From Acidimicrobiaceae bacterium (GTDB taxonomy: Bacteria > Actinomycetota > Acidimicrobiia > Acidimicrobiales > RAAP-2), in assembly GCA_003133545.1 (NCBI GenBank), contig PKYA01000062.1:7135-71134 (forward strand): a stretch of DNA of 64,000 bases. Reading direction: 5' to 3'. A program made the translations under genes and the position numbers. How positions within the stretch are numbered: position 1 is the stretch's first letter; the number at the start of each line of letters is the position of its first letter. Under the pieces are notes generated by a model. The model ran no database searches. It was given only the letters and a program-made list of their open reading frames with translations, and was not told the origin of the DNA. Of this stretch, positions 46,133-58,103 are shown one piece after another.

Positions 46133-47395
46133 TCACCCTGCGTTCACACCCGGCGGGCACGTCAACCTCGCGCCGGCAAAAGCATGCAACCGTGCCCGTT
46201 GCTCGGACCTGACGGGGCCGGTGAGCACCCACCGCAGTCGCGTGCGCAGCACGAGAGACGTGAAGACCGCCGAGAGCGCTAGGGTGGCGGCGAAGGTCGC
46301 TGCAACTCTTCCCGCCCATCCGATGTGAGGTCCGATCCATATCGCGCCGAGCGCCCAGCGCACGAGGCTTATGAAGAGCACGTGACACAGGAAGATGCCG
46401 CCGGTCAGGCTCCCTAGGTAAACGGCTGAGAACGCAGGAGCGCGCACCCGCCGCTCGTCCCTCTGGGCGCGCTGGTACCACATCCAGGTGGCGCACTCCA
46501 GCCCGGCCACCGCCGCGGTGAACCACAAGAAGGCAATGGGCTGATAGAGATCCGAAGCGCGCCCTGTGGGCGACCCGGTCCAGACCGCGACCAGGTACCA
46601 GAGTGTGGCGACGACGCCCATCGCGGCGGCGGCGATGATAATGGTGCGGCCCCAGCGCTGCACGAATCCTCTGACTTGGTCGAGATGCAGCGCCACCAAG
46701 GCGCCGGCCACGAACTGCTCCTGGTAGGTGATGGGGTCTCTCTCCCATGGCCAAATCGAACCCAGCCGCCGCGTGGCGTCCCCGACCACCCCGAACGATC
46801 CGGGCCAGTGCAGATCGGCGGCGAGCGCCAGGGCGAAGGTGAGGCTGGCGAACATGATGATGCCCTGATGGCGGCTGGCCCGCAGCACCCGGATCAAGAG
46901 TGGCCACACGAGGTAGACCTGAAGGAGCACCACGGCGAAGTAGAGCTGGTAGTAGCCGAAAACGAGGTCGTGCCAGAACAGAGACCCCGCCCGGCTGGTC
47001 GATCCGTGCACGCTGAGGAGCGTGTACACCCAGTAGACGAAGGTCCAGGCCAAGTACGGCACACCGAGTTGCACGTAGCGACGGCGCCAGAACTCCCGAG
47101 TGGACCGGGGCCTGGTGATCTGGGCGTAGGTGAGAAGCAACGCCGACAGGAAGAAGAACGCCGTCCGGCTGAAATGCAGCAACATCACGAAGGCCCATGG
47201 GACGACGATCCCGGCCGGGATCGTCCATAGGAATGAATGCTGGAGCACCACGGCGCCGCAGGCCACGACCCGGTACGAATCGAATTGACCGAGATAGTCA
47301 CCGAAGCCCGGTCGGTTCGGATCGATGCTCGCCTCTGCGTCCGGGTGGGCGCGCCGAGCGTAGGGCGGATCGGTCAAGGCGCGCACCGTGCGCAT
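46133..47395 (-). CDS. acyltransferase family 3 (AT3) integral membrane protein
   Basis: About 10 hydrophobic segments, HFSRTAFFFLSALLLTY, and an overall AT3-like layout. Start taken at ATG 47393-47395 (MRTVRAL). The longer ORF runs to 47491. Confidence 0.75.
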   Translation of the reverse strand: MRTVRALTDPPYARRAHPDAEASIDPNRPGFGDYLGQFDSYRVVACGAVVLQHSFLWTIPAGIVVPWAFVMLLHFSRTAFFFLSALLLTYAQITRPRSTREFWRRRYVQLGVPYLAWTFVYWVYTLLSVHGSTSRAGSLFWHDLVFGYYQLYFAVVLLQVYLVWPLLIRVLRASRHQGIIMFASLTFALALAADLHWPGSFGVVGDATRRLGSIWPWERDPITYQEQFVAGALVALHLDQVRGFVQRWGRTIIIAAAAMGVVATLWYLVAVWTGSPTGRASDLYQPIAFLWFTAAVAGLECATWMWYQRAQRDERRVRAPAFSAVYLGSLTGGIFLCHVLFISLVRWALGAIWIGPHIGWAGRVAATFAATLALSAVFTSLVLRTRLRWVLTGPVRSEQRARLHAFAGARLTCPPGVNAG

Positions 47396-47547
47396 CCTCG
47401 CGGACCCAGCCGAATTCCCCCTTGGAGGCACCTGTGTTTTGATTGAGGCCGCCATCCGTCGTCGGAGCCATGGGATACTGGCCTTCCCCATGGATGCGCG
47501 CGTCGAGGTCGAACTGGCCGACAGGGCGATCGCGGCCTCGTAAGCCC

Positions 47548-51239: not shown

Positions 51240-52487
51240 GTGCTCGCCGCGACGGTGCGGGTCACGGGCGACATCGATGTGGCGGAGGAGTGCGTCCAGG
51301 ACGCCTATGCCCGCGCCCTGGCCAGCTGGTCCAGTGACGGCATCCCGGCCAGACCGGGCGCATGGTTGACGACGGTGGCCCGCCGCCGTGCCGTCGACGT
51401 CATGCGGCGAGTCTCCACGCACGGCCGGGCCCTCCCCCTCCGCGTCGAGCCTGTGACGGCTCCCGGCCCGGAGGACCGGGAGCCCCCCGAGATCATCGAC
51501 GACCGGCTGCGCCTCATCTTCACGTGCTGTCACCCGGCCATCAGCACCGACGCGCAGGTCGCGTTGACGCTGCGCCTGCTCTGCGGGCTCACGACCGCCG
51601 AGGTGGCGCGGGCTTTCTTGGTGAGCGAGGCCACCATGGCGGCCCGGATCACCCGAGCCAAGAAGAAGATCTCCGCTGCTCGCATCCCCTTCCGCGTGCC
51701 GCCCGTCGAAGACCTCCCCGCTCGTATCGGTGCCGTGCTCACGGTGCTCCACCTGCTCTTTTCGACCGGACACACCGCTCCCGCCGGCGCCGATCTGATC
51801 CGACGGGACCTGGTGGAACGTTCCCTCGACCTGGCCCGGGTCCTCCGGGCTCTGCTGCCCGGCGATGCCGACGTCGCCGGCCTGCTGGCGCTCATCCTGC
51901 TCACCGACGCCCGGCGCGCCGCTCGGCTGGGAGATGCCGGCCAACTGGTGTTGTTGTCCGACCAGGATCGCTCTTGCTGGGACCAAGACGCCATCAAGGA
52001 GGGCATCTCCCTGTTGGGAGTTGCCCTGCAGCGCCGGCCTCCCGGCCGTTTCGCCCTCATGGCGGCCATCGCCGCGGTGCACGCCCAGGCCCCCTCGTGG
52101 GATGCCACCGACTGGCGCGAGATCCTCGGGCTCTACGACATCTTGGTGGAGATATGGCCGTCTCCCGTCGTCGCTCTCAACCGCGCCGTGGCGGTCGGCC
52201 TCGCTGGCGGACCGGCGGCCGGGCTCGCGGCGCTCGACGCGTTGGGGACGGAGCCGCTCCTTGCCACGTACAGCTATCACGCGTCGGCGCGGGCCGACTT
52301 CCTGCGGAAGTTGGGCCGGACGGGGGAGGCCCGCGCCGCCTACGAAGAAGCACTGCTGTTGAGCGAGAACGAAATAGAGAGGGGGTTCCTGGCTGACCGC
52401 CTGCATGAGATGGAGGCCCAACATCGTGCGGGAGGCGATGGCACGAACCCAGGTCCCTCCCAGCCACGCGCCGGGCGCGACGCCTGA
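51240..52487 (+). CDS. ECF sigma factor with C-terminal TPR-like extension (ECF42-type; the usual partner of YCII genes)
   Basis: Region 2 (EECVQDAYARALASW, PGAWLTTVARRRAVD), region 4 (RLIFTCCHPAISTDAQVALTLRLLCGLTTAEVARAFLVSEATMAARITRAKKKI), and a long helical C-terminus. The true start is probably upstream (about 51162-51200), because SDVPRPERASVEAAVADAHRREWAF reads in frame. Confidence 0.8.
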   Translation: MLAATVRVTGDIDVAEECVQDAYARALASWSSDGIPARPGAWLTTVARRRAVDVMRRVSTHGRALPLRVEPVTAPGPEDREPPEIIDDRLRLIFTCCHPAISTDAQVALTLRLLCGLTTAEVARAFLVSEATMAARITRAKKKISAARIPFRVPPVEDLPARIGAVLTVLHLLFSTGHTAPAGADLIRRDLVERSLDLARVLRALLPGDADVAGLLALILLTDARRAARLGDAGQLVLLSDQDRSCWDQDAIKEGISLLGVALQRRPPGRFALMAAIAAVHAQAPSWDATDWREILGLYDILVEIWPSPVVALNRAVAVGLAGGPAAGLAALDALGTEPLLATYSYHASARADFLRKLGRTGEARAAYEEALLLSENEIERGFLADRLHEMEAQHRAGGDGTNPGPSQPRAGRDA

Positions 52488-52613
52488 CACCATGCATGGT
52501 GCGACAGGGCGCCAGGCACCACTGGCAAAATTTATGAATTTTATGTCGAAGTCTGACGTGGTTCTCGGTGCGTTCCCAGTCCTGACCCAGAGGAATTGTC
52601 CATCCTGTGATGA

Positions 52614-53255
52614 ATGAATCGTGCGCGTGACGAAAGCAACAACATTTGGCTGGTGCGCCACGGTGAGAGCACGTGGAATGTGCGCGGGCTCATCCAAGGA
52701 CAGGCCGACGGCCCGGTACTGACGGCACAGGGCCACCGGCAATCTGCCGAGCTCGTCGAGCGCTTCCGTTCTCGTCGTGTCGAAGCGCTCTACGCCAGTG
52801 ATCTCGTCCGCGCCCAGCAAACCGCGGCCTATGTCGGTTCGCTTCTTGCCCTCCCGGTCCGATGCGATGCAGCGTTACGCGAACGGTGCTTCGGCGCCTA
52901 TGAGGGACTCCCATTGCAGGCGCTCGAGCCCGAGGCGTCCGGCATCGTTGGCATGCAGATCGTCGACCCCTCGGCGCGTCCTCCCGGTGGCGAGTCGCTC
53001 ACGGACGTACGGCGGCGGGTGGCGGGGTTCGTGCAACGGCTGGCGGGCCAGCGGCACACGGGCGACGTCGTCGTGGTCACCCACGGCGGGACCATGCGGG
53101 TCGTGCGCGCGTACTGCACGGGTACGCCCCTGCGCAACGCCGCCTGGGACCCGGTCCCCAATGGCACCGTCTGGCCCCTGCACCCACCGGAGCCCGCTGT
53201 CGTCGTCCCCCATCCCCCGAGCGCACGGAGGGTCATATGCGTCCCACAGCCCTAG
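52614..53255 (+). CDS. histidine phosphatase (phosphoglycerate mutase-like) family protein
   Basis: IWLVRHGESTWN (RHG), SDLVRAQQTA, ERCFGAYEG, VVVTHGGTMR. Confidence 0.85.
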   Translation: MNRARDESNNIWLVRHGESTWNVRGLIQGQADGPVLTAQGHRQSAELVERFRSRRVEALYASDLVRAQQTAAYVGSLLALPVRCDAALRERCFGAYEGLPLQALEPEASGIVGMQIVDPSARPPGGESLTDVRRRVAGFVQRLAGQRHTGDVVVVTHGGTMRVVRAYCTGTPLRNAAWDPVPNGTVWPLHPPEPAVVVPHPPSARRVICVPQP

Positions 53256-54013
53256 AGCTTCCAGACCGAGCAAGCAAGCCCAGGTCGTCCGGGCTGACAA
53301 TGATGGTGGACGGCGGATTGCCCACCCGGCACTTTCGCGATGTCGTGCAGAGTGGCGCGGAGTTCCTCGACTTCGTGAAGTTCGGATGGGGCACCGCGTT
53401 GGTGACGAAGGATCTCGCCCAGAAGATAGCGGTACTGCAGGAAAGCGGGGTGAACTTCTACTTCGGCGGCACGTTGTTCGAGAAGTTCGTGCTGCAGGAT
53501 CGGCTCGATGACTTCCGTGCGCTGTGCCACGAGCACTCCTGTCACTTCGTGGAGGTGTCCAACGGCACGATCGATCTGACGAATTCTGAGAAGGCCGGCT
53601 ACATCCGGAAGCTCTCCGGCGAGTTCGACGTCATCTCCGAGGTGGGATTCAAGGATGCGGAGCGCTCCGAGAACCTGCCACCGAGTCGGTGGATCGAATG
53701 CATTCAAGAAGATCTTGACGCCGGAGCCTCGCTCGTGACCCTGGAGTCGAGGGAGAGCGGCCGCTCGGGTATCTGCCGTCCCAACGGCGAGCTCCGATTC
53801 GGGCTCATCGAGGAGCTGTTGGCGAGCGGCCTCCGGCACGAAGGCCTGCTCTTCGAAGCGCCCTCGACCGAGCTCCAGTGCTATTTCGTGAAACGGGTCG
53901 GACCCGATGTCAACTTGGGCAATGTGGCGGCCTCCGCCGTACTCGGGCTCGAGACCATCCGTCTCGGACTCCGGTCCGACACGTTGTGCTGCTTCGAGAG
54001 CGGGGCTGCGTGA
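53237..54013 (+). CDS. comA: (2R)-phospho-3-sulfolactate synthase (ComA family)
   Basis: KPRSSGLTMMVDGGLPTRHFRDVVQSGAEFLDFVKFGWGTALVTKDL...GVNFYFGGTLFE...HFVEVSNGTIDL...ISEVGFKD...LESRESG matches the ComA pattern as I recall it. GGAGGG sits before the ATG. 19-nt overlap with the phosphatase gene. Confidence 0.85.
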   Translation: MRPTALELPDRASKPRSSGLTMMVDGGLPTRHFRDVVQSGAEFLDFVKFGWGTALVTKDLAQKIAVLQESGVNFYFGGTLFEKFVLQDRLDDFRALCHEHSCHFVEVSNGTIDLTNSEKAGYIRKLSGEFDVISEVGFKDAERSENLPPSRWIECIQEDLDAGASLVTLESRESGRSGICRPNGELRFGLIEELLASGLRHEGLLFEAPSTELQCYFVKRVGPDVNLGNVAASAVLGLETIRLGLRSDTLCCFESGAA

Positions 54014-54417
54014 GGGAAGGAAGGGATGTCTTCCACCTCGCCATACCGGCATATGACCTGGCCGAGACCGAGCACTTCTACGTCGGCCGGCTCGGCTGCA
54101 AGCTGGCTCGGCGCTATCCGGATCGCATCACCCTCGACTTCTTCGGGGATCAGGTCGTCTGCCATCTGAGCGAGCCTGGCGCAGGTGTCGCGGGCGGCCT
54201 TTCTCTCTATCCACGGCACTTCGGCATCACGTTCCGCGCAGCGGCGGACTTCGATGCCGTGCACCACCTCTGCGTCGAGCGCAAGATCGAGATGTTCCGC
54301 GAGCTCAGCACCAGATTCGAAGGAATGGTCGAGGTGCACCGCACCTTCGTGCTGCGCGACCCGTCGGACAATCTGGTCGAGTTCAAGCACTATGCCGATC
54401 CCCGGATGATGTACTGA
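54010..54417 (+). CDS. VOC (glyoxalase/dioxygenase fold) family protein
   Basis: GTG 54010 overlaps the comA stop (GTGA). VFHLAIPAYDLAETEHFYVGRLGC...HFGITF...VLRDPSDNLVEFK. Confidence 0.65.
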   Translation: MREGRDVFHLAIPAYDLAETEHFYVGRLGCKLARRYPDRITLDFFGDQVVCHLSEPGAGVAGGLSLYPRHFGITFRAAADFDAVHHLCVERKIEMFRELSTRFEGMVEVHRTFVLRDPSDNLVEFKHYADPRMMY

Positions 54418-54418
54418 C

Positions 54419-56011
54419 ATGGCAGCACTCACTCTGGCCCCGGCACTCTCCGGCACTGCGCCATGCCTTCCCGCAGTGGCCACTCTGGCCGACATCATCG
54501 GCGCGCGGTGCGCCAGCCAGGGGTCCAGGCCGTATCTCGAGCATGCCCGCAGTGGCCGCGTCGTGTCCTTCGGCGAGCTCTCCTGGGCGGTCGAGCTCTG
54601 GACGGCCGTGCTGGACCGCGCAGGCGTCGCGCCTGGGTCCACCGTGGCCCTCTCGATCAGTGATCCCCTTGACTTTTCGATTGCCTTTCTCGGGACCATC
54701 GCGGCCGGGCGCTGGGTCGCGCCGCTGAATCCGGCCCAGCCCGCTCACGGGGCGGCTGGGTTGGAGGCTGCCGCCGCACGGGTGCACGCCGTGATGGTGT
54801 TCGCCGACGCGCCGGTGCCCGCGGGGGTCGACCTCGACTGGGTGCACATGCGCGCGGGTGCGTTTCTCGGGGCCCCCTCGAACCCTGCACACACAAGGCC
54901 GGCGCGGAGGGGAGACGCGGGTGGGGCGGTGCTGGCCTCGTCGGGCACGAGCGGCCCTCCCAAGGTGATCCGACTCGGAGAGGACCAGTTGTTGCACACG
55001 GCGCGCGGTGTCGCCGCCCACCATCGGCTCACCCGGAGCGACCGCGGGTTCTGCCCGCTGCCGCTCTTCCACATCAACGCCGAGGTCGTGGGGTTGCTCG
55101 CCTCGCTCGTCGCCGGGTCATGCCTGGTCCTCGACGACCGCTTCCACCGCACGCGCTTTTGGGGCGTGATGACAGAGCGGCGGATCACCTGGATCAACGC
55201 CGTCCCGGCGATCATCTCGCGGCTGGCCGATCCCCGTGGGGAGGAGATGCCACCGGGCATCCGCTTCATCCGCTCGGCGTCGGCCCCCTTGGCGGTGGCG
55301 ACGGCTGCCCGCTTCGAGGCCACGACCGGCATACCCGTGGTGGAGACATACGGCATGACGGAGGCAGCCAGCCAGATTACGACCAATCCGGTGGACGGCG
55401 GGCGCAAGCTGGGCTCGGTCGGGCTCCCCGTCGGGGTCGAATTGCGCATCGTCGCCGACGAGACGGCCATGCCGGAAGAGTCGGCGCCAGGCTGCCCCCA
55501 CGGCACCGGTCACGTCGAGATTCGGGGACCGTCGGTCATCACGGCTTATGGCGGTGATGACCACCGGGAATGTATCGACTCCGACGGCTGGCTACGGACG
55601 GGAGACCTCGGGCATCTCGACGACGACGGCTACCTCTACCTCGACGCCCGGGCCGACGATGTGATCAACCGTGGCGGTGAGAAGGTCTTCCCCCGCGAGA
55701 TCGAGGAGGTGGCCCTGCTCGATCCCGATGTGGCTGCCATCGCGGTGGTCGCTGCCCTTGATCCCGAGTTGGGTGCGGTGCCCGTGGCGTTCCTCGTGGT
55801 GCACGGCATCGCCGACGACACCGATCGACCCAGGGTCTCCCGCGTGACCCGCCGGGTCCGGGACCACCTCGAGGTGTCGCTCGTCCGGAGCAAGCGGCCT
55901 GCCTCCCTGATGGTGGTACGCGCGCTGCCGGCGGGGGCCACCGGCAAGGTGGCGCGGCGCGCCCTGCGTGCCGGCGACGTGCCGGTCATCTTTCGGCTCG
56001 ACTGCCGATGA
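54419..56011 (+). CDS. AMP-dependent synthetase/ligase (ANL superfamily, acyl-CoA/acyl-AMP forming)
   Basis: LASSGTSGPPKV (AMP motif), ETYGMTEA, GWLRTGDLG, DRADDVINRGGEKVFPREIEE. ATG lies 1 nt after the previous stop. Confidence 0.85.
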   Translation: MAALTLAPALSGTAPCLPAVATLADIIGARCASQGSRPYLEHARSGRVVSFGELSWAVELWTAVLDRAGVAPGSTVALSISDPLDFSIAFLGTIAAGRWVAPLNPAQPAHGAAGLEAAAARVHAVMVFADAPVPAGVDLDWVHMRAGAFLGAPSNPAHTRPARRGDAGGAVLASSGTSGPPKVIRLGEDQLLHTARGVAAHHRLTRSDRGFCPLPLFHINAEVVGLLASLVAGSCLVLDDRFHRTRFWGVMTERRITWINAVPAIISRLADPRGEEMPPGIRFIRSASAPLAVATAARFEATTGIPVVETYGMTEAASQITTNPVDGGRKLGSVGLPVGVELRIVADETAMPEESAPGCPHGTGHVEIRGPSVITAYGGDDHRECIDSDGWLRTGDLGHLDDDGYLYLDARADDVINRGGEKVFPREIEEVALLDPDVAAIAVVAALDPELGAVPVAFLVVHGIADDTDRPRVSRVTRRVRDHLEVSLVRSKRPASLMVVRALPAGATGKVARRALRAGDVPVIFRLDCR

Positions 56012-57213
56012 GCACGCCCGCAGCCGCGTTCGCAGCAGCCGAGCCCGGGCCCGGCACCCGCCAGCGGCTCCATCACATCGACGCCATGCGGCCGGTCAAG
56101 CAGGTCGGCGTCGTCTCGACCCACACGCTGATTGCCTTCGCGCCGGCGGCGGCCGGCGGCGTCGGTGCCGCCCTCCAGCTCCTGCACGCGACGCGTGAGG
56201 CTTTTCTCTTCGTGTCGGCGTGCATGATCACCTACAGCTTTCGCCACGTCTTGCGGGTGGAGCTCGCATCGTTCTGGCGCCGCCGCTTCATGATGGTCGG
56301 GGTGCCGTATCTGTGCTGGACGGCCATCTACTTCTGCCTCACCTGGCGGACCACCACGGGCTCGGTCTCCGCGCGACTCCTCCACTTGGGCTATCTCACG
56401 GCCACCGGGTACTACCAGCTGTATTTCCTGGTGGTCCTGCTCGAGTTCTATGCCGTCTTCCCCCTCCTCATGGCGCTGTTGCGGCGGACCGCCGGCCATC
56501 ACGGGGCGCTCCTCGCGGCGAGCGGGGCGCTCCAGGTGCTGCTCGTCTCGCTCATACACTGGGGCGCGCTCCCGCGCTCGATGCAGGGGTTCTGGGCTAC
56601 CCGCGAGGTCACCTCGTACCAGTTCTACCTCGTCGCCGGGATGGTGGTGGCCCTGCATCTCGATGAGGTGCACCAGTGGCTCTGTGCGCATGTGCGCCTG
56701 GTGGTCGGGTTCACCTTGGCGACAGCGGGGATCGCCGAGGGGTGGTACTTCCTTTCCGCCGACCATGTGGTCTCGTGGTTGGGCTCCAGCTCCGATCCCT
56801 TCCAACCGGTGGTGATCCCGTTCAACATCGGCGCCATCGCCTCCATTTATCTCGTCGGGGTGTGGCTCGTCGGCCCCAATCGCTCCGCAACGACCCGCGC
56901 CCTGACGCAGACCGGTTCGGACGACTCCTACGGTGTGTATCTGGCCCAGTTGGTGTTCATCACGGCCTTGACGTGGGTCGGCTGGGAGCACCTCAGTGCG
57001 TTCGTGCCGTGGCCGGTCCTCAGCATCTGCACCGTCGCGCTCGTCTTCGTAGCCTGTGTGGCCCTTACCGAGCTGCTGGCCCGGACGCCGCTGGCAAAGC
57101 CCCTTACCGGACGATCACGTGTGCCGCAGGGGCCGGGGCTGCGTCGCACCACCGCCGTGGTCGGCGCGGATCCCCTCGGGGGAAAACAGATGGTCCCGTC
57201 CGGACGCCTCTGA
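56008..57213 (+). CDS. acyltransferase family 3 (AT3) integral membrane protein
   Basis: ATGA overlap with the ligase stop. HHIDAMRPVKQVGVVSTH, REAFLFVSACMITY, GVPYLCWTAIYF, YYQLYFLVVLLEFY, about 10 TM segments. Confidence 0.8.
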   Translation: MSTPAAAFAAAEPGPGTRQRLHHIDAMRPVKQVGVVSTHTLIAFAPAAAGGVGAALQLLHATREAFLFVSACMITYSFRHVLRVELASFWRRRFMMVGVPYLCWTAIYFCLTWRTTTGSVSARLLHLGYLTATGYYQLYFLVVLLEFYAVFPLLMALLRRTAGHHGALLAASGALQVLLVSLIHWGALPRSMQGFWATREVTSYQFYLVAGMVVALHLDEVHQWLCAHVRLVVGFTLATAGIAEGWYFLSADHVVSWLGSSSDPFQPVVIPFNIGAIASIYLVGVWLVGPNRSATTRALTQTGSDDSYGVYLAQLVFITALTWVGWEHLSAFVPWPVLSICTVALVFVACVALTELLARTPLAKPLTGRSRVPQGPGLRRTTAVVGADPLGGKQMVPSGRL

Positions 57214-57221
57214 GCGGATAC

Positions 57222-58103
57222 TCAAGACCCGATGGCGTCGCCCACGGCGTCAGCGATGGCCTCGCCGATGACCCGATAGCCCGCATCGTTGGGGTGCTTG
57301 TTGGGACCGAGGGGTGCGGGTGCGCATTCCCAGGTCAGCGCACAGGTGCGCGCCACGTCCAGCGGGACGGTCCCGAAGCCGGGCACCGACGTCGGCTGCG
57401 TGTTCGTCATGTCGAATGCCGCGGGGATGTCGGCGACAGGGATCCCCGCGGCGCCATAGGCGGCACGCAACGCGTCGTTGAGCCTGAGGATTACGGCCAG
57501 GGACTGCGCGGCGAACATTCGCCCTGCTGGCCCGTCGAGGGCGGAGGCCAGGTAGGGGTCGTAGTGGGTGAGCCCAATCATCAGCGTCCCCGGTGCGGCG
57601 GTTTCTTTGAGCAGGGTCAGTATCTGGGGGAGCTGCACCCCGACGTCCCGCAGGGCGCGCGCCACGCAGGTCTCGTCGATCGTCGCGTGCCTGAGGCAGC
57701 GCACCACGTCGTTGAAGCCGAGATCAACCGTTATCAGCACCGTCGACGGGTGCTGGTGGAGAAAGGACAGCGCTGCTCCAAGTTGTGAAGCCTGCGGGTA
57801 GGTGCAGTGATCCGTTCCGGTGCGCATGGTCGCTGTGGTCTCACCGGGACATCCGAGGTCCACCAACCGCAGGTCATGCCAGCGAGAGCGTTCGGCGTCG
57901 AGCAGATCGTTCGCGTAGCCCGAGAGCGTGCGCTCCCCGTGGGGATCGGCGGCGGTGGGTTGGAAGCCGACCGATGCGGACCCTCCGAGGGCGAGGTAGT
58001 AGGGGGAGTCCTGGTCCACCGCGCCGAGGGGCGGTGCGGCGCCGGCGACGCCGCCGAGCAGCCCGGCCGCCCCCGCGCAGAGTGCAACTGTGCCCACCCG
58101 CAT
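57222..58103 (-). CDS. secreted SGNH/GDSL-like hydrolase
   Basis: Signal peptide MRVGTVALCAGAAGLLGGVAGA. YLALGGSASVG (block I Ser), VDLGFNDV (block III), HPNDAGY (block V). Only the C-terminal 293 codons of the 570-aa track ORF are used. Confidence 0.75.
   Translation of the reverse strand: MRVGTVALCAGAAGLLGGVAGAAPPLGAVDQDSPYYLALGGSASVGFQPTAADPHGERTLSGYANDLLDAERSRWHDLRLVDLGCPGETTATMRTGTDHCTYPQASQLGAALSFLHQHPSTVLITVDLGFNDVVRCLRHATIDETCVARALRDVGVQLPQILTLLKETAAPGTLMIGLTHYDPYLASALDGPAGRMFAAQSLAVILRLNDALRAAYGAAGIPVADIPAAFDMTNTQPTSVPGFGTVPLDVARTCALTWECAPAPLGPNKHPNDAGYRVIGEAIADAVGDAIGS

Follow-up and report, generated by a model that had tools for sequence, protein, structure and literature searches.

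The 64,000-nucleotide window analysed here, a stretch of contig PKYA01000062.1 from an Acidimicrobiaceae bacterium of peat soil, carries a compact operon of five genes. These encode a histidine phosphatase (HisP), a ComA-family synthase, a small VOC-fold protein, an ANL ligase and an AT3 membrane acyltransferase, and a convergent gene for a secreted SGNH protein faces the end of the operon (Table 1). The sequence and the list of open reading frames place the five genes of the plus strand, the overlaps between them and the SGNH gene exactly where an earlier note on this DNA had put them, the five Pfam families that it had named (PF00300, PF02679, PF00903, PF00501 and PF01757) were all matched, and the domain families and catalytic motifs are intact in all six proteins. 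The junctions, as read in the sequence, bear out the translational coupling of the five genes that had been claimed. The ComA start codon (ATG 53237), which is preceded by a GGAGGG Shine-Dalgarno sequence, lies 19 nt inside the phosphatase gene, the TAG stop of which occupies 53253-53255; GTGA at 54010-54013 is common to the end of ComA and the start of VOC; the VOC stop (54415-54417) is separated by 1 nt from the ligase ATG at 54419; and ATGA at 56008-56011 serves both the end of the ligase and the start of AT3. The GTG start of the VOC gene yields MREGRDVFHLAIP, a residue-for-residue match to the N-terminus of PDB entry 3RRI. The convergent SGNH gene ends 8 nt from the AT3 stop.

Table 1. 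Features of the operon and its surroundings, with positions in the window and the supporting match.
Feature	Position	Strand	Match
HisP, histidine phosphatase branch 1	52614..53255	+	PF00300 1e-47
ComA-family (2R)-phospho-3-sulfolactate synthase	53237..54013	+	PF02679 9e-79
Small VOC-fold metalloenzyme	54010..54417	+	PF00903 8e-9
ANL adenylate-forming ligase	54419..56011	+	PF00501 4e-44 + PF13193
AT3 (Acyl_transf_3) integral membrane acyltransferase	56008..57213	+	PF01757 1.4e-23
Secreted SGNH/GDSL hydrolase-fold protein	57222..58103	-	PF13472 1.5e-12
Second AT3 paralogue	46133..47491	-	PF01757 5e-29
Conserved ~55-nt DNA motif, candidate promoter/operator	52550..52607	+	nhmmer

The ComA protein aligns through residues 10-248 to positions 2-243 of the 243 of PF02679, at 264.8 bits against a cut-off of 25.2. 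Its nearest relatives of known structure are YitD of Bacillus subtilis (1U83, 7.7e-80), with which it shares 47% identity, and ComA of M. jannaschii (1QWG, 3.8e-41). With 213.9 bits it falls below the cut-off of 280 for TIGR03849, the NCBIfam model of archaeal ComA, and it is therefore a member of the bacterial branch. Among the 100 columns identical in 1U83 and 1QWG, 68 are retained and the other changes are mostly conservative. The block motifs of these two solved enzymes are all kept (VKFGWGT, GGTLFE, VEVSNG, SEVGxK with its lysine, ESRESG, FEAP, VNLGN and LETxRLGLRSDT).

Among species-representative genomes, a scan turned up a close ComA at 80 loci. Their hosts belong to the Acidimicrobiia, the Streptosporangiales (Trebonia kvetii, an isolate, among them), the Nocardiopsaceae and other groups. 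Counting only loci whose contig extends far enough, ComA is accompanied by HisP in 77/79, VOC in 79/79, ANL in 75/77, AT3 in 76/76 and SGNH in 57/72. Gene order is exactly that of the window in 57 loci, and a permuted order, HisP-ComA-VOC-AT3-ANL, is found in 9. As the permuted order is seen in Streptosporangiales, the linkage appears to be under selection, beyond shared ancestry alone. The five-gene block thus exceeds chance association by far, and the co-occurrence that had been suggested as a check is found, with the block syntenic in nearly all of the 80 species-level genomes. No further gene is kept around the block across the lineages of these 80 loci, and the block is surrounded by housekeeping genes. 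An apparent fusion of HisP and ComA (P0116) was left unused as Rosetta-stone support because the genes of its contig are broken by frameshifts; apparent ComA+VOC, VOC+ANL and VOC+ATP-grasp fusions were, with the same caution, not relied on. About 20 metagenomes from peat and permafrost contain the window itself in intact form. Metatranscriptome contigs from four peat/permafrost runs, which are short and without mismatches in the listed pieces, cover parts of each of the six genes and run across the ComA/VOC junction.

In the ComA/ComB route, which is followed for coenzyme M in methanogens and by YitD/YitC in B. subtilis, the same first step, from phosphoenolpyruvate and sulfite to phosphosulfolactate, leads to a dephosphorylation. 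The window differs in having a histidine phosphatase for ComB and in the VOC, ANL and AT3 genes downstream. HisP has the RHG motif (R15-H16-G17) and THG at 156-158 with the second catalytic histidine, H157, all conserved in 44 orthologues, and its best relatives in the PDB are phosphatases (PhoE, CobC, GpgP, PspA), not mutases. A tblastn search with the ComB (PF04029) of Ferroacidibacillus gave no homologue in the 64-kb window (best E = 2.8), nor did tblastn find one at the 80 loci within ~10 kb of their ComA genes. In Ferroacidibacillus (L086:1-8402) the gene order is ComB-ComA-VOC, with overlapping genes, so that ComB holds the slot that is taken by the histidine phosphatase in the window, and this supports the non-orthologous replacement of ComB which the earlier note had suspected. 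HisP is accordingly proposed, on its motifs and position, as a putative 2-phospho-3-sulfolactate phosphatase. The neighbours of ComA in the block are VOC, ANL, AT3 and SGNH, with no linked ComC, ComDE or Xcb-type genes, the bacterial Xcb enzymes being of the aspartase/fumarase type together with pyridoxal phosphate enzymes (PMC9457059). The block is accordingly not a coenzyme M pathway.

For the VOC protein, the best match of known structure is 3RRI, a structural-genomics protein from Alicyclobacillus that carries no functional assignment (2.7e-50, 62-64% identity), and its AlphaFold2 model (pLDDT 91) superposes on this structure with a TM-score of 0.92. The paired beta-alpha-beta-beta-beta modules of the VOC superfamily are present together with His/Glu candidate metal ligands; H9, H52, H70, E124, Y24, Y67 and D117 are invariant. 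The spacing of H9, H52, H70 and E124 is similar to that of the Fe(II) site plus catalytic histidine of extradiol dioxygenases. The family is compact, with only 8 representatives (50% clustering) at E < 1e-30. By sequence and fold, no close match was found to a characterised VOC enzyme (glyoxalase I, methylmalonyl-CoA epimerase, Fos or extradiol dioxygenase), and the matches that follow 3RRI are uncharacterised cassette proteins, STM3117 and FosA/FosB (TM-score 0.6-0.67, 15-22% identity). Three Acidimicrobiia have a gene for a D-2-hydroxyacid dehydrogenase immediately upstream of HisP (L003:1924-2892, L009:8282-9244, L012:8278-9240). Such a gene also adjoins or lies near VOC in Sulfobacillus-type genomes (L083/L084:8953-9933; L088:5541-6524), where MurJ-like flippases and a sulfotransferase are close by and no ComA is nearby.

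A plausible clue to the role of this protein comes from an antibiotic. The cluster for misaugamycin, a type V glycopeptide of Streptomyces sp. WAC00631, contains misNOPQ, which encode an ACP (acyl carrier protein) and an acyl-CoA ligase, as well as a synthase of phosphosulfolactate and a glyoxalase (PMC9136965, 2022). The N-acyl group of misaugamycin is 2-sulfoacetyl in form B and malonyl in form A, the addition of Na2SO3 favours form B, and the authors predict, without proof, that misNOPQ provides the sulfoacetyl group (PMC9136965). The earlier note knew of no described pathway with the gene set of the window; misNOPQ is, however, a published set of a similar kind, with ComA, a glyoxalase/VOC protein and an acyl-CoA ligase in one operon, the likeness being one of gene families as published. 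The two systems also differ. The mis cassette delivers via the ACP to a nonribosomal peptide synthetase (NRPS), whereas the window would do so via one or two AT3 proteins and a secreted SGNH protein; no ACP is present in the window operon, where the overlapping genes leave no room for one, or was seen in the loci inspected; and the dedicated histidine phosphatase of the window is not listed for the mis cassette. Searches of plasmids for mis-like genes returned only CoM-type ComA (<=41% identity) and distant VOC proteins. In the literature we found no description of a sulfonate-acyl surface decoration or of this gene combination, and under 'sulfoacetyl' only catabolism, misaugamycin and unrelated matches.

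The ligase has the expected ANL motifs A3, A5, A7 and A10 (SSGTSGPPK at 174, YGMTE at 311, TGD at 394 and PAGATGK ending in K510, the A10 lysine). It falls under all NCBIfam equivalog cut-offs, the best being FadD7 (248.5 bits vs 650), with malonyl-CoA synthase at 202 vs 558. Its best relatives in the PDB are oxalate-CoA ligases (1e-59), followed by MenE, FadD13 and malonyl-CoA synthetases, and this kinship with ligases of small anionic diacids suggests a small anionic acid as substrate. Sulfoacetate corresponds to malonate with a sulfonate in place of one carboxylate. The protein is thus proposed, from its sequence relationships, to be a putative sulfoacetate- (or sulfolactate-) CoA ligase. 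That it might be a fatty-acid ligase leading to an O-acyl-sulfolactate lipid was considered and dropped, since it clusters with the oxalate- and malonate-CoA ligases. A precedent for the reaction, though not for its direction in metabolism, is sulfoacetate catabolism, with the sulfoacetate-CoA ligase SauT and sulfoacetyl-CoA (Cupriavidus necator; Bilophila, PMC10413351); sulfoacetyl-CoA is hence a real metabolite, and an AMP-forming ligase is able to make it. This pathway is catabolic and leads to sulfoacetaldehyde, whereas in the window the thioester would serve biosynthesis as the donor of an acyl group; the two are likened by reaction.

The identity of the acyl group bears directly on what the VOC protein may do. 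As misaugamycin carries a 2-sulfoacetyl group, the group transferred here is more likely the C2 unit 2-sulfoacetyl than sulfolactyl. The general idea of the earlier note, that a sulfonate-bearing acyl group is activated and passed to AT3, fits these observations, and what should be revised is the acyl group itself, for which the misaugamycin parallel favours sulfoacetyl. Going from the C3 sulfolactate to the C2 sulfoacetate needs a chain-shortening oxidation, and since VOC is the sole enzyme left unassigned, we propose it for this step. By analogy, VOC would most likely turn sulfolactate into the acid for activation, probably sulfoacetate. How it would do so is a matter of speculation, an O2-dependent oxidative decarboxylation being one mechanism; the balanced reaction, sulfolactate + O2 giving sulfoacetate + CO2 + H2O, would require no cofactor. 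The carriers named here are, to our knowledge, all aerobes. The same architecture could instead transfer the C3 sulfolactyl group, with VOC as an epimerase or isomerase of sulfolactate or of its CoA ester and no shortening of the chain. Sulfolactate is the direct product of ComA and a phosphatase, methylmalonyl-CoA epimerase and glyoxalase I offer an analogy, the four invariant candidate metal/base residues (H9, H52, H70, E124) are like those of proton-transfer VOC proteins, and the 2-hydroxyacid dehydrogenase that is sometimes linked suggests chemistry at the C2 hydroxyl. Nevertheless this alternative seems unlikely to us: the sole natural product tied to a ComA/VOC/ligase cassette bears 2-sulfoacetyl, no literature report of 'sulfolactyl' was found, and the closest relatives of the ligase use C2-C3 diacids without a hydroxyl.

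The downstream genes point to transfer across the membrane. The acyl group handled by AT3 proteins comes from a CoA thioester in the cytoplasm and is handed on to an outer SGNH domain that esterifies a surface glycan, as in OatA and OafA. OatA (Staphylococcus) and OafA/OafB (Salmonella) have a 10-helix AT3 part, an arginine and a histidine in the first helix, and an extracytoplasmic domain of serine-hydrolase fold, and SucT of mycobacteria is an AT3 protein that installs succinyl, an anionic group, on a wall polysaccharide. These enzymes draw on common acetyl- or succinyl-CoA pools, whereas the window operon would have its own pathway for a sulfonated donor. Residues D25, R28, H39, H60, R63, R92 and R93 of the window AT3 are conserved across 82 homologues; R28 and H39 lie 11 residues apart in the first helix and presumably correspond to the OafA residues. 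The SGNH protein has a hydrophobic N-terminal signal, conserved G84 and G87, and S42, N131, H270 and six cysteines that are invariant in 30 orthologues. The signal, the Ser/Asn/His blocks and the cysteines fit a secreted, disulfide-bonded protein.

In the window the SGNH protein is the product of a separate convergent gene and not, as in OatA and OafA, fused to the C-terminus of AT3, and it stands beside AT3 in this convergent manner in 57/72 loci. Trebonia and Nocardiopsaceae loci have in its place a membrane-anchored esterase-like protein of ~290 residues (L061:10650-11519; L070:11555-12439). It contains a GYSNGG motif, matches a feruloyl esterase weakly and falls in no Pfam family. In the isolate T. 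kvetii this esterase-like domain is fused to AT3 in a protein of 724 residues (L072:12658-14832). That two distinct serine-hydrolase folds occur in one role argues for an outer protein that works together with AT3 and against an esterase that undoes its action. The SGNH protein, which the earlier note had offered as the matching esterase, is hence more likely a putative extracytoplasmic transferase partner in a split OatA/OafA-like layout, given that the Trebonia-type domain follows AT3 or is fused to it. The window has also a second AT3 gene. Its product is ~64% identical to an AT3 whose gene immediately precedes HisP on the same strand in 26 related genomes, and only ~32% identical to the AT3 type of the operon itself, so that it is probably a displaced member of an ancestral block. 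In the window it is inverted and displaced by ~5 kb, and small open reading frames as well as genes for Ku and an ECF sigma factor lie between.

What the acyl group is transferred to has to be considered as well. The acceptor could be a small secreted or membrane metabolite, with AT3 acting like a macrolide O-acyltransferase in the making of a sulfonated natural product or surfactant. Some AT3 enzymes do acylate small molecules, and an MFS transporter lies within the cluster in two lineages (Alicyclobacillus acidoterrestris and metagenome contig L091). The related mis cassette, too, serves an antibiotic. However, no polyketide synthase, NRPS or glycosyltransferase is conserved beside the block in the 80 loci, its surroundings are the housekeeping genes mentioned above, and a conserved SGNH/esterase partner together with a second AT3 suits the O-acylation of a polymer better. 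A metabolite acceptor is therefore distinctly unlikely in our view.

We lean, with moderate confidence, towards the operon being a module that produces a sulfonated acyl group and transfers it extracellularly. In the proposed course, ComA would, by strong homology, convert phosphoenolpyruvate and sulfite to 2-phospho-3-sulfolactate; the histidine phosphatase would release sulfolactate, as its position and the exchange with ComB elsewhere suggest; VOC would turn this into the acid used, most likely 2-sulfoacetate on the misaugamycin parallel; and the ANL ligase would form the CoA thioester. By analogy with the AT3-SGNH O-acyltransferases, AT3 would accept the acyl group at the inner face, and the secreted SGNH protein would esterify a hydroxyl group on the extracytoplasmic acceptor, which is probably a wall glycan. 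The supply arm so proposed is common with the predicted mis cassette, and the transfer arm with the AT3-SGNH systems. A narrower proposal is put forward only tentatively, namely that the carriers O-sulfoacetylate a cell-wall polymer and that VOC is a new cofactor-free enzyme cutting sulfolactate to sulfoacetate.

Outside the block, the distribution of the genes shows which of them travel together. VOC stands beside ComA also in several Bacillota genomes and metagenome-assembled genomes and on unassigned metagenome contigs, and ComA-VOC is the constant pair across phyla. The order is AT3-ComA-VOC in Alicyclobacillus cycloheptanicus, and in A. acidoterrestris an ANL-MFS-AT3 group is divergent from SGNH-ComA-VOC. 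Metagenome contigs have ComA-VOC-ANL-AT3 (L087) or MFS-AT3-ANL-ComA-VOC (L091), and ComA-VOC occurs alone on metagenome contig L089 and in a Bacillota assembly that also has a GerA gene (L092). The Ferroacidibacillus operon is preceded by genes for a flavoprotein, asd, aspartokinase, dapA, RNase J, a Clp-type protease and ylzJ and followed by a SpoIIIE/FtsK gene, a region that resembles a sporulation gene neighbourhood, and this hints at a spore-linked role of the free sulfonate in Bacillota. Such loci lend some substance to the view that two independent functions are merely linked, with ComA, the phosphatase and VOC making a free sulfonate or trapping toxic sulfite and ANL, AT3 and SGNH performing an ordinary envelope acylation. 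A free sulfonate could be a solute or a spore-type store; sulfolactate is stored in B. subtilis spores; and in spore-forming Bacillota ComA-VOC is found alone or with ComB. We nevertheless regard two separate functions as decidedly improbable: in the window the five genes are joined by overlapping stop and start codons, the ligase falls in the small-diacid clade, and the linkage has outlasted permutation of the gene order across orders and phyla.

Still less can be said for a catabolic module in which ComA, running in reverse, frees the sulfite of a sulfonate taken up by the cell. Being an addition-elimination, the reaction of ComA is reversible in principle, and some clusters do include an MFS transporter. 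This reading is nonetheless exceedingly improbable, as the phosphatase adjoining ComA would remove the substrate for the reverse reaction, the block has no kinase, AT3 and a secreted SGNH protein have no catabolic role, and sulfite feeding increased the sulfonated product in the mis system.

Several observations weigh against the proposed production and transfer of a sulfonated acyl group. Activity, product and acceptor are predictions for every member of the operon, and the role of the mis cassette is itself only predicted (PMC9136965). The nearest characterised VOC folds are Fos thiol transferases, not oxygenases. Some genomes have ComA-VOC, or VOC with the 2-hydroxyacid dehydrogenase, and no ANL or AT3 nearby, which indicates that the supply and transfer arms can function separately. 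Neither the mis cassette nor several of the Bacillota and metagenome loci have a linked phosphatase, so that VOC might use phosphosulfolactate. The SGNH protein lacks the usual aspartate three residues ahead of the catalytic histidine, and contaminating DNA is possible among the metatranscriptome contigs.

If the proposal holds, this would be the first sulfonate-acyl surface decoration, bearing a charge that is negative at any pH, and sulfonate would join acetyl, succinyl, D-alanyl and pyruvyl among the known decorations. Such a permanent charge would be in keeping with where the carriers seen here live (peat Acidimicrobiia, Trebonia, Alicyclobacillus and Ferroacidibacillus). It would also provide a function for a conserved orphan VOC family with a solved fold (3RRI), explain the origin of the 2-sulfoacetyl group of misaugamycin B and point to a sulfite sink in abundant uncultured peat Actinomycetota. 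As some carriers can be cultured (Trebonia kvetii and Alicyclobacillus species), the prediction is directly testable.

With regard to expression, one of the metatranscriptome contigs (56960-57484) crosses the gap between the AT3 and SGNH genes, which may reflect overlap of their transcripts at the 3' ends or carry-over of DNA. Upstream of the operon lies a conserved motif of ~55 nt, a candidate promoter or operator. It comprises two CAG boxes (TTCxCAGT ... CxCAGAG) followed by GGCAtNNTg, which is CATNNT-like, and it lies 6-10 nt before the HisP start codon. A search with nhmmer found it at about -680 to -740 of the ComA start in the window and 31 fetched loci (32 sources); the spacer flanking it is not conserved among relatives. 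As HisP has no Shine-Dalgarno sequence in front of it, its transcript could be leaderless, and possibly a leaderless or short-leader transcript starts from the motif. A scan for sigma-70 promoters and terminators gave nothing above shuffled expectation. A riboswitch in the conserved leader was rejected, as no Rfam family matched there and neither a consensus RNA structure nor covariation was found. Relatives do not share a neighbouring palindrome (52488-52501) to which the earlier note had drawn attention. The gene immediately upstream of the operon (51240-52487, plus strand) encodes an ECF sigma factor with a C-terminal extension of DUF6596 and TPR. Among the 80 loci an ECF sigma gene is found upstream only in the closest relatives, at ~-2 kb in 7 and at ~-2.9 kb in 2; in other lineages the block has two-component systems at its flanks.

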